64,000 nt of DNA, taken from NCBI RefSeq assembly GCF_041248615.1, contig NZ_CP158426.1, one strand, 5' to 3'. Positions 52,216-53,348 of the stretch are shown here, piece by piece (position 1 is the stretch's first letter; each line of letters starts with the position of its first letter). Position numbers and translations under genes: made by a program. Below the pieces are notes generated by a model. The model made no database searches. It worked only from the letters and a program-made list of their open reading frames with translations, and was not told the origin of the DNA. Source of the stretch: Escherichia coli. GTDB taxonomy: Bacteria > Pseudomonadota > Gammaproteobacteria > Enterobacterales > Enterobacteriaceae.

Positions 52216-52717
52216 CTACCCTTGTTTTTTATCCAAGCTGGAAAATGGTTCATCTAGCAACAGGATATCTGGATTTGGAACCAGTGACCTTGCAAGGGCA
52301 ATACGTTGCTGCTGACCTCCTGAAAGTTCATGAGGATAGCTGTCTGAATAGTGGAATAAATCCACCATTTTCAACAGTTCTGTAACTCTGGTTCGCTGTA
52401 CATCTCTCGGCAGTCTTCTCAGACCAAAGCCACGTTTTGTGAAACTGTAAGGTGGGGAAAGAGCGCATATTCCTGAAAGACTATACCGACATGACATTTC
52501 TCCGGCGGAAAATGCATATCTGCGCTGGCCACACAATGCTGTGATACAAAAATTTCCCCTTGTTCAGGCGCTCAAAACCAGCTACAGCACGTAGTACTGT
52601 TGTTTTTCCACAACCTGATGTACCAAGCAGACATGCCAGTTCACCTTTACAGACTGACATACCCCCCGCCCCGCAATACAGGATATGGGCTATTGGGATA
52701 AACAACATGGACATCAT
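52216..52717 (-). pseudogene. ABC transporter ATPase, frameshifted and C-terminally truncated
   Basis: Walker A LLGTSGCGKTT in ORF 52481..52717; signature LSGGQQQR and Walker [12 protein letters not shown] in a different frame (52216..52536); no intact single frame. Confidence 0.7.
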
Positions 52718-52747
52718 TAATACATAAAGCTGTTTCTTCAGACATAA

Positions 52748-53348
52748 TCAATCCTCTGATTTCAGTCTTTCAGCTGGAACAAACAAAATAACCGGAAATG
52801 TCCCTGCAAGAACAATCATTAAAGCAGAGATGGCCCCTTCTTCAAAAGTTCCACGGGCTGCTTCAGCATAAAGAAGTGTTACTGGCAGTTCTTTCATCGC
52901 ATCAGTGAAAACCAGCAGGGCACTGCTCACCAGAGCAACACAGGAAAGTGAACCCGAACAAAAGTTCCTGTACCATTTTCTCCCAGCAGACGTGAGGCTT
53001 GTTCCAGTGACTCTGGTATACGTCCCAGCCGGACATCAAGTGCGCCGATGGCTATTGCCTGAAATCGCATCGTACAGCAAATCACCAACAGGACACCGAC
53101 AGACATTAAAGGTAACCCCCTGTAATCCAGTAGTTCCGCCAGCCAGCGGTCATTTAGGGAGTCAGAAAACCAATCGCCAGAATCGTGCCCGGAAAGGCAT
53201 AACCCAGCGACGCCACTCTCATCACACCGCGCCTGAACAGTGGCATAGCGTTGAGGAATTCCGGGCATTCCAGACTACGAGCAGACTGACAAAAATTACG
53301 ACAAAGCGTTGAAGGAAGCCAGCGCGCGGACTGACAGGACTTTACCAT
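52748..53348 (-). pseudogene. ABC transporter permease remnant (C-terminal part, frameshifted)
   Basis: Three overlapping short frames with permease-like hydrophobic segments and an EQASRLLG-type conserved loop; too short for a complete permease. Confidence 0.55.

Follow-up and report, generated by a model that had tools for sequence, protein, structure and literature searches.

The closest described counterparts of the transporter genes analysed here are the ferric-iron importers FbpABC, HitABC and SfuABC, and FbpB is typically a fused two-domain permease. Two other known systems bear on the locus: PhoX enzymes use an iron-calcium centre, and IS1414 is an IS256-family insertion sequence (IS) known to carry astA/EAST1. 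An intact operon related to the importer genes of the locus encodes a binding protein of 345 residues (WP_032669183), a permease of 562 residues (WP_032669185) and an ATPase of 227 residues (WP_032669186). This operon is found in the chromosome of Escherichia coli CX21 and in the Klebsiella pneumoniae plasmid pKPN-262, and its orthologues are present in Buttiauxella, Rahnella and Citrobacter. All intact relatives share this layout and encode a binding protein of 345–349 residues, a permease of 562 residues and an ATPase of 225–231 residues. The binding protein of the relative matches solved ferric-binding proteins, including 1Y9U (E=1.3e-149) and the FbpA structure 1Q35 (E=9e-81), as well as further FbpA, HitA and SfuA structures such as 1D9V and 1XVY, over a range from E=1e-149 to 1e-16. 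The three proteins of the relative all score far below the NCBIfam equivalog cut-offs for ferric iron, thiamine, 2-aminoethylphosphonate and polyamine transporters; the assignment to the ferric-iron family is therefore based on the matches to solved structures. The ancestor of the genes described below is predicted to have been an FbpABC-type importer of ferric iron that had a short ATPase, and we infer the precise substrate of its lineage from these relatives.

The window, which is the whole 64-kb stretch of E. coli DNA that was analysed (contig NZ_CP158426.1), contains an insertion flanked by yrdA-rrnD on one side and by yhdZYXW-acrF on the other. The two sides are directly adjacent in K-12. 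The chromosome of E. coli NRZ14408 (NZ_LT599825.1) matches the region at 100% identity, and the RefSeq annotation was read there. It lists an IS1414 transposase, two ABC transporter pseudogenes, an intact PhoX family protein, two transposase pseudogenes and yhdZ (Table 1). Both ABC pseudogenes together occupy positions 52079–53305 of the minus strand. They are already flagged in RefSeq and are of an ordinary, known kind. The ABC genes are very probably non-functional relics of an FbpABC-type importer that were joined secondarily to a captured phoX gene and are now passive cargo.

Table 1. Features of the insertion and its flanks, with positions counted from the first base of the window.
Feature	Position	Strand	Basis or remark
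Left 8-bp target-site duplication, ATCAAATC	50425..50432	.	K-12 comparison
Complete IS1414, IS256 family, 1315 bp	50433..51747	+	PGAP, Pfam, terminal repeats
Spacer 3' of ATPase pseudogene	51748..52078	.	contains IS66-family scrap at ~51885-52005
ABC ATPase pseudogene, full length, four frameshifts, H-loop His->Tyr	52079..52745	-	PGAP and alignment
D-loop, SSLDK	52242-52228	-	motif mapping
Walker B, ILLLDEP	52266-52246	-	motif mapping; same frame as LSGGQQQR
Signature, LSGGQQQR	52326-52303	-	motif mapping; same frame as Walker B
Q-loop	52481-52452	-	motif mapping
Walker A, GTSGCGKTT	52624-52598	-	motif mapping; one frame
C-terminal third of fused two-domain ABC permease, three frameshifts	52748..53305	-	PGAP and alignment
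Secondary junction of permease interior and phoX 3' flank	53299..53305	.	homology limits
Native phoX 3' flank with short hairpin (53356-53372)	53306..53398	-	T-runs after the stem on both strands
Intact phoX, 659 aa, putative twin-arginine leader RRRLLQAG	53399..55378	-	Pfam and PGAP, WP_000533456.1
Native phoX 5' flank, end of captured segment	55379..55478	-	homology limits
Transposase pseudogene scraps	56021..57505	+	PGAP 'transposase; frameshifted; internal stop; incomplete'
Deleted IS1414-like element	57511..57707	+	right end 57645-57707 is the distal inverted repeat of the unit
Right 8-bp target-site duplication, ATCAAATC	57708..57715	.	K-12 comparison

Remnants of the importer genes

The ATPase gene, which PGAP labels 'ABC transporter ATP-binding protein, frameshifted', was reconstructed by a frameshift-aware protein-to-DNA alignment with the intact 227-residue relative WP_032669186.1 as the reference. 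The alignment covers residues 1–218 of the 227, with an identity of 73.5% (158/215), and contains four frameshifts, located near 52661, 52561, 52430 and 52227. The frames follow each other in the order 2>1>2>0>1, and all three are used. Walker A, the Q-loop, the LSGGQ signature, Walker B and the D-loop are all present and in the correct order, and two of the open reading frame pieces match the Pfam family ABC_tran (PF00005) with E=7.3e-8 and E=1.4e-12. An earlier note on this DNA described the ATPase motifs as split over two frames, which is correct for Walker A relative to the LSGGQ and Walker B motifs but not for the gene as a whole, since its N-terminus, Q-loop and H-loop lie in further frame segments. 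The note also began the decayed region at 52216, and thus cut off the last ~46 codons of the gene. The H-loop reads LLVTYSEHEA and carries the change His196Tyr, at a position that is histidine in all 111 intact homologues compared. After correction of the frames, seven of the 92 columns that are nearly invariant among these homologues are changed, including that of His196. The gene does not have the continuous reading frame of a functional ATPase gene, and the catalytic H-loop histidine is missing.

The permease remnant corresponds to residues 359–554 of the 562-residue WP_032669185.1, with an identity of 83.9% (146/174); the rounded figure of 84% refers to the one relative that was aligned (L003). 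The reading frame of the remnant shifts three times, near 53254, 53156 and 52932, and ~11–13 codons are deleted; the EAA-type loop EQASRLLGENG is located at 53004–52972. PGAP labels positions 52748–53302 'iron ABC transporter permease; frameshifted; missing N-terminus'. The remnant is spread over three short overlapping open reading frames (53348–53154, 53268–52927 and 52930–52748). Both tblastn and the alignment agree with the earlier description of the permease as C-terminal fragments only, and a complete fused two-domain permease of ~560 residues is not present. The tblastn search with intact relative proteins that the earlier note had proposed, together with the frameshift-aware alignment, enabled the reconstruction of seven frameshift positions in the two genes. 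The similarity is far above chance, with tblastn E-values of 1e-46 for the ATPase and 1e-61 for the permease of the relative against the region. The two decayed genes belong to one ABC importer, as the note had proposed. Both align to a single relative operon, and RefSeq/PGAP lists them independently as frameshifted pseudogenes.

The 64-kb window contains no match to the binding protein of the relative (tblastn, E<=1e-3), in agreement with the earlier note, and therefore does not hold the ferric-binding protein gene of an FbpABC-type operon. Residues 1–358 of the permease and the binding-protein gene are absent rather than decayed, and the permease stops abruptly at 53305. A fragment annotated as 'extracellular solute-binding protein' beyond the ATPase in strain SFE8 was considered as the lost binding protein and rejected, because it is an internal piece of UgpB. 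The fragment matches the UgpB equivalog with E=1e-79, does not match the FbpA-like protein and is absent from the window.

The remnant resembles the WP_032669183/WP_032669185/WP_032669186 operon in having 68% nucleotide identity to it, together with the amino-acid identities of the ATPase and of the C-terminus of the permease given above. The two have the same permease tail and a short ATPase (~227 residues) without a C-terminal regulatory domain. In contrast to the relatives, which are complete, the window lacks the binding-protein gene and the first 358 residues of the permease and contains the seven frameshifts. The remnant belongs to another lineage, with a G+C content of 46.6% compared to 54–56% in the relatives. 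Descent from the FbpABC-type family is supported by the similarity of both genes to an operon that encodes an FbpA-like binding protein, and PGAP names the permease as an iron transporter permease. The remnant differs from FbpABC, HitABC and SfuABC in lacking a binding protein and in having an ATPase of the short form of 225–231 residues.

A second, paralogous operon (ATPase cluster P0032) is common in E. coli and intact, with a binding protein of 349 residues, a permease of 562 residues and an ATPase of 225 residues. It is similar to the remnant in architecture and in G+C content (47.4%), but its ATPase is only 68% identical in amino-acid sequence, and it is a paralogue rather than the remnant's parent. 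The paralogous operon and the remnant occur together in at least one strain, GF4 (CP172217). The reconstructed ATPase found no intact protein closer than 73% amino-acid identity among 5.8 billion proteins, and no intact DNA above 68% nucleotide identity was found in 5,426 E. coli genomes and 72,556 plasmids. Therefore, the parent lineage of the remnant is unsampled. The dN/dS ratio of the remnant relative to its intact relative is ~0.07–0.08, which indicates that most of the divergence between them arose in genes still under selection and that the decay came on top of it later.

phoX and its junction with the permease remnant

The phoX gene, labelled 'PhoX family protein' by PGAP, is intact, which supports the earlier statement that this gene had been retained. 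The protein has the full-length domain of PhoX family alkaline phosphatases (PF05787, E=1e-165), with residues 80–615 matching profile positions 2–515 of 515, and a putative twin-arginine leader in which the RRRLLQAGTVAGAAAAF motif is visible; the Pfam TAT_signal score is 16.7 bits, below the cut-off of 22.7 bits. PhoX is 96% identical in amino-acid sequence to a cluster whose representative comes from Cronobacter universalis, and 76–81% identical to the chromosomal PhoX proteins of Franconibacter, Enterobacter and Klebsiella. Unlike these chromosomal relatives, phoX in E. coli is an accessory gene embedded in IS debris, and it was found in 98 of the 5,426 complete genomes (~2%). It is a recently acquired, Cronobacter-like accessory gene. 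The window contains no match to the Pho-box consensus with three or fewer mismatches. The hairpin in the 3' flank of phoX has a weak 5-bp stem and is a putative terminator only. It forms a terminator-like site on the plus strand, and TGTTTTTAT follows the same stem on the minus strand.

The homology to ABC transporter genes stops at 53295–53305, where the homology to other phoX loci starts. Plasmid phoX loci match positions 53299–55462 with 93.6% identity, and a Cronobacter-like chromosomal locus (L018) matches positions 53303–55478 with 91.8% identity. The captured segment is thus 2.2 kb long and includes ~100 nt of flank on each side of the gene. The plasmid copies have ~150 nt more native 3' flank in common with the Cronobacter-like locus than the window has, which indicates that the plasmid arrangement is nearer to the source and that the junction in the window is derived. 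The plasmid copies have a phytase-like esterase gene as their downstream neighbour and lack an ABC remnant. At the same position, Franconibacter has a glucoamylase gene, Klebsiella a ZnuA-type metal ABC system, and the Cronobacter-like locus an ABC system of the methionine type (MetNIQ-like). In none of these four contexts (plasmid, Cronobacter-like, Franconibacter and Klebsiella) does phoX adjoin the importer studied here, and none of the intact importer relatives in four contexts (Buttiauxella, Rahnella, E. coli and a Klebsiella plasmid) adjoins phoX. No recognisable IS end was found at the junction, at 53299–53305. The G+C content of the phoX segment is 54.8%, which differs from that of the remnant.

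The earlier note proposed that a complete uptake system had decayed around the retained enzyme. Such an importer could have been a partner of PhoX that took up its product or its cofactor and decayed in place while phoX was kept. The remnants share the strand of phoX and lie 94 nt downstream of it, and the iron-calcium centre of PhoX could provide a role for an importer whose ancestor transported ferric iron. The ZnuA-type importer after the Klebsiella phoX also fits such a partnership. However, the permease is cut in the middle of the gene exactly where the captured phoX segment begins. The plasmid copies of phoX retain more of their native flank and have no ABC remnant, the ABC system at the Cronobacter-like source locus is of the methionine type, the four intact importer relatives have no phoX nearby, and the G+C content changes between the remnant and phoX. 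The comparison with other genomes that the note had suggested showed that the importer and phoX are not neighbours in any of the four contexts in which the importer is intact. Decay in place is therefore improbable. The cut at the limit of the phoX segment and the unlinked relatives indicate that the binding-protein gene and the N-terminus of the permease were lost at the breakpoint rather than by decay in situ. There is no sign that a working importer was ever present in the island. The adjacency of the remnant and phoX is most simply read from the sequences as a rearrangement scar in a mosaic of IS debris, not as a decayed functional partnership. Adjoining phoX does not prove a functional partnership, which corrects the earlier interpretation.

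There is a slight chance, marginally smaller than that of decay in place, that an unsampled donor carried an importer of this lineage beside phoX, in a role tied to the iron-calcium centre of PhoX or to a programme of iron-phosphate scavenging. The present junction would then be an internal deletion of a once functional cluster, and the Klebsiella phoX with its ZnuA-type importer would be a parallel case.

Distribution of the block

The 5,961-bp block at 51748–57708 is present in strains SFE8 and PKF11 with 99.95–99.98% identity and zero gaps. Altogether, the full remnant, at an identity of at least 99.7%, was found in 54 of the 5,426 complete E. coli genomes, always in the chromosome and always annotated as frameshifted pseudogenes. 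The hosts of these carriers are chickens, humans, pigs and wild birds, sampled in several countries. The record NZ_LT599825.1 contains a second place that matches. Carriers of the block account for ~1% of complete E. coli genomes; many are from poultry, and the remainder are largely from humans.

Frameshifts seen in a single genome are a common artefact of long-read assemblies, and the ATPase gene would be intact if those in the window were sequencing or assembly errors. The same indels are, however, present in the 54 complete genomes, which were assembled independently, and the gap-free sequence comes from different laboratories, hosts and countries. The agreement of these genomes refutes an artefact, and the earlier note was right to treat the frameshifts as real. 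Furthermore, every carrier copy is annotated as frameshifted, the H-loop histidine is lost even after correction of the frames, and the binding protein as well as two thirds of the permease would be missing in any case. The probability that the gene is intact is negligible.

A second lineage of ~40 genomes, 98.7–99.4% identical, keeps only positions 52862–53398 of the stretch that comprises the remnant and the phoX flank. The sequence to the left of 52862 was removed by another IS, and phoX was kept. Over positions 52862–53305, this lineage has the same junction and the same indels as the window, including the three frameshifts of the permease. The junction and indels common to the two lineages indicate that the breakage is older than the spread of the block. 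The shared frameshifts and the junction are convenient lineage markers for the block.

The fragments might still be used: the ATPase could work in a split or recoded form, for example, or read-through from phoX could yield small membrane peptides. Fragments and phoX point the same way, with just the weak hairpin between them, and the sequence of the fragments is very well conserved among the carriers. However, this conservation is a property of the entire block, which spread recently and in which obvious IS debris is conserved as well, and the second lineage retained phoX after losing everything to the left of 52862. The ATPase contains four frameshifts within 667 nt with no evident recoding signals, it has lost its H-loop, and neither a partner permease nor a binding protein is available. 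Continued use is thus very improbable. We consider the remnants, as judged from their sequence, to have no plausible function.

The IS1414-bounded unit

The remnants and phoX are part of a unit of 7,275 bp (50433–57707) inserted into the spacer between rrfF, which belongs to the rrnD operon, and yhdZ. The unit contains IS1414 with astA, the ABC remnants, phoX and IS debris. The octamer ATCAAATC occurs in only two copies within 50301–57800, and these exactly flank the unit, whereas the empty site of K-12 reads ...CCAGACATCAAATCAAGCGAAAGG... and has a single copy of the octamer.

The complete IS1414 forms the left end of the unit. Its transposase (50505–51713) is labelled 'IS256-like element IS1414 family transposase' by PGAP and matches the Pfam family Transposase_mut with E=2.7e-119. 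An intact open reading frame of 38 residues for astA (EAST1) is embedded in the element at 51220–51336, and the equivalent position is annotated as astA in plasmid copies. The two ends of IS1414 both begin with GAGCCTGT and match in 25 of 40 terminal bases. The element has the mutator-type transposase, the imperfect terminal repeats and, at 8 bp, a duplication within the 8–9 bp that characterise the IS256 family. To the right of IS1414, the IS66-family scrap in the spacer has a 72% nucleotide match to IS66 tnpC/ISSfl4 ORF3, and the open reading frames in 51748–52078 have no Pfam match. The transposase scraps on the other side of phoX consist of an IS3-family-like N-terminal part (56021–56724) and a second piece (57176–57505), and the stretch matches the Pfam families HTH_Tnp_1 and HTH_21.

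The right boundary of the unit is formed by the deleted IS1414-like element. Its right end is 85.7% identical to the right end of IS1414, its segment 57511–57552 is 90.5% identical to the 5' region of IS1414, and 33 of its 40 terminal bases are identical to those of the IS1414 right repeat. The arrangement agrees with IS1414-type compound mobilisation in having a complete IS1414 with intact astA, repeats of the family type, an 8-bp duplication, and a left and a right end that bracket the cargo in the correct orientation. Unlike a classical compound transposon with two complete IS copies, the unit has only one, and its other boundary is the scrap at 57511–57707 of a deleted relative with 86–90% identity. 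The same cargo is found at another chromosomal site, the iha/ICE-remnant island, in strains SFE8, PKF11 and TUM1886, and the positions of IS1414 in these islands differ slightly from that in the window.

Read most simply, these sequences suggest that the distal scrap served IS1414 as a surrogate right end and that the element moved the whole unit, a reading supported by the 8-bp duplication and the empty site in K-12. Alternatively, an IS1414-like element may have first inserted between rrfF and yhdZ, generating the duplication, and the cargo may have been added by homologous recombination or gene conversion with the copy in the island. The right end has diverged from IS1414 and might be a poor substrate for the transposase. 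E. coli also has many copies of IS1414, and a query that included an IS1414 end found 12 matching places in the record from which the window was taken. However, the right side offers only ~60–200 bp of homology with 86–90% identity, and one left and one right terminal repeat bound the unit exactly, with a perfect duplication, as is expected from one simple transposition event. Recombination into a pre-existing IS is therefore the weaker alternative and is unlikely, although it is less remote than any of the alternatives discussed above. The clean target duplication suggests that the unit can move as a whole.

Based on the remnants, the junction and the distribution of the block, the history of the locus can be proposed. 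The ancestor was probably a three-gene ferric-iron importer with the gene order binding protein, fused 12-helix permease and short ATPase. The phoX gene was probably captured separately, as a 2.2-kb piece of a Cronobacter-like chromosome. A rearrangement would then have cut within the permease gene and joined it to the phoX 3' flank, and the binding-protein gene and two thirds of the permease would have been lost there. The non-working leftovers presumably gained the seven frameshifts, the in-frame deletion and the loss of the H-loop histidine afterwards. The remnants, the intact phoX and the IS debris now form a 5.96-kb block in which the remnants are probably carried along as passive cargo. 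In this strain, the astA-carrying IS1414 lies at the left of the block, and the 7,275-bp unit was inserted between rrfF and yhdZ.

The decayed importer matters little as biology. A literature search for PhoX together with IS1414 found no paper, and a broader search gave only unrelated marine and other work. The locus has a modest value for tracking accessory genes in E. coli associated with poultry and humans, since in this strain phoX and the astA toxin gene are combined in one 7.3-kb unit bounded by IS1414.

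A probable mobile unit with IS1414-type ends

The spacer between rrfF and yhdZ contains a single insertion of 7,275 bp, composed of IS1414, the remnants of the FbpABC-type ABC importer, phoX and IS scraps. The insertion is flanked by an 8-bp duplication, and the corresponding site in K-12 is empty. The transposase gene of IS1414 contains an intact 38-residue-long open reading frame, at the position annotated as astA, the gene of heat-stable enterotoxin EAST1, in plasmid copies of IS1414. Therefore, the mobile unit carries a toxin gene besides phoX.

A direct repeat is located on the 5' side of phoX, and the start codon of the gene lies approximately 50–90 nt downstream of it. 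The repeat does not match the Pho-box consensus of E. coli.

Features of the mobile unit and of related loci
Feature	Location	Strand	Detail
7,275-bp insertion	window 50425-57715, with the flanking duplication		
Left boundary of unit			IS1414 left end
Right boundary of unit			IS1414-like right-end scrap
8-bp duplication	both sides of the insertion		ATCAAATC
Open reading frame, 38 aa	window 51220-51336	+	MPSTQYIRRPASSYASCIWCATACASCHGRTTKPSLAT
Direct repeat	window 55425-55470	minus	TTTCCGTA...TTTCCGTA, spacing 14 nt
phoX segment, ~112 nt	window 54405-54516		matched elsewhere in E. coli
Partial "alkaline phosphatase" pseudogene	L021 2473-2613		example of a match to the phoX segment
53-bp tandem duplication	L008 (23CRST013) about 7452-7557		window 53200-53252, doubled
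UgpB internal fragment	L002 (E. coli SFE8) 7191-7592		E=1e-79 to UgpB equivalog
phoX, then ABC importer	L020 (Klebsiella pneumoniae) 9253-11826		same direction

Other copies of the remnant block

The permease remnant of 23CRST013 contains a tandem duplication, which is a further neutral change in the permease pseudogene. The matches from AR13438 and EC332 are divided into two aligned pieces with approximately 52 bp of extra length, as in 23CRST013, the only genome for which the duplication was aligned; judged from these match lengths, AR13438 and EC332 probably also carry it. In SFE8, where the block lies in an island, the ATPase remnant is adjoined, just past the position of IS1414 in the window, by an internal fragment of the glycerol-3-phosphate binding protein UgpB, which is one more Pho-regulon-type scrap in the mosaic of the block. 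A search with window segment 51900-53398 identified two matching places in the NRZ14408 chromosome (NZ_LT599825.1), and the one outside the window is possibly the island copy from which the block was donated.

phoX in Klebsiella and in E. coli mobile DNA

The chromosomal phoX of Klebsiella pneumoniae is followed by genes of a ZnuA/ABC-3-type metal ABC importer, which is unrelated to the importer family of the remnant. PhoX enzymes are metal-dependent, and the importer beside the Klebsiella gene may be of interest for this reason.

Hundreds of E. coli chromosomes, among them those of laboratory strains of the BL21 type, and plasmids of roughly 90–170 kb match the phoX segment at 90–93%. The matches are annotated as partial pseudogenes, surrounded, for example in L021, by IS30 and toxin-antitoxin debris. 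Therefore, an older scrap of phoX is widespread in E. coli mobile DNA.
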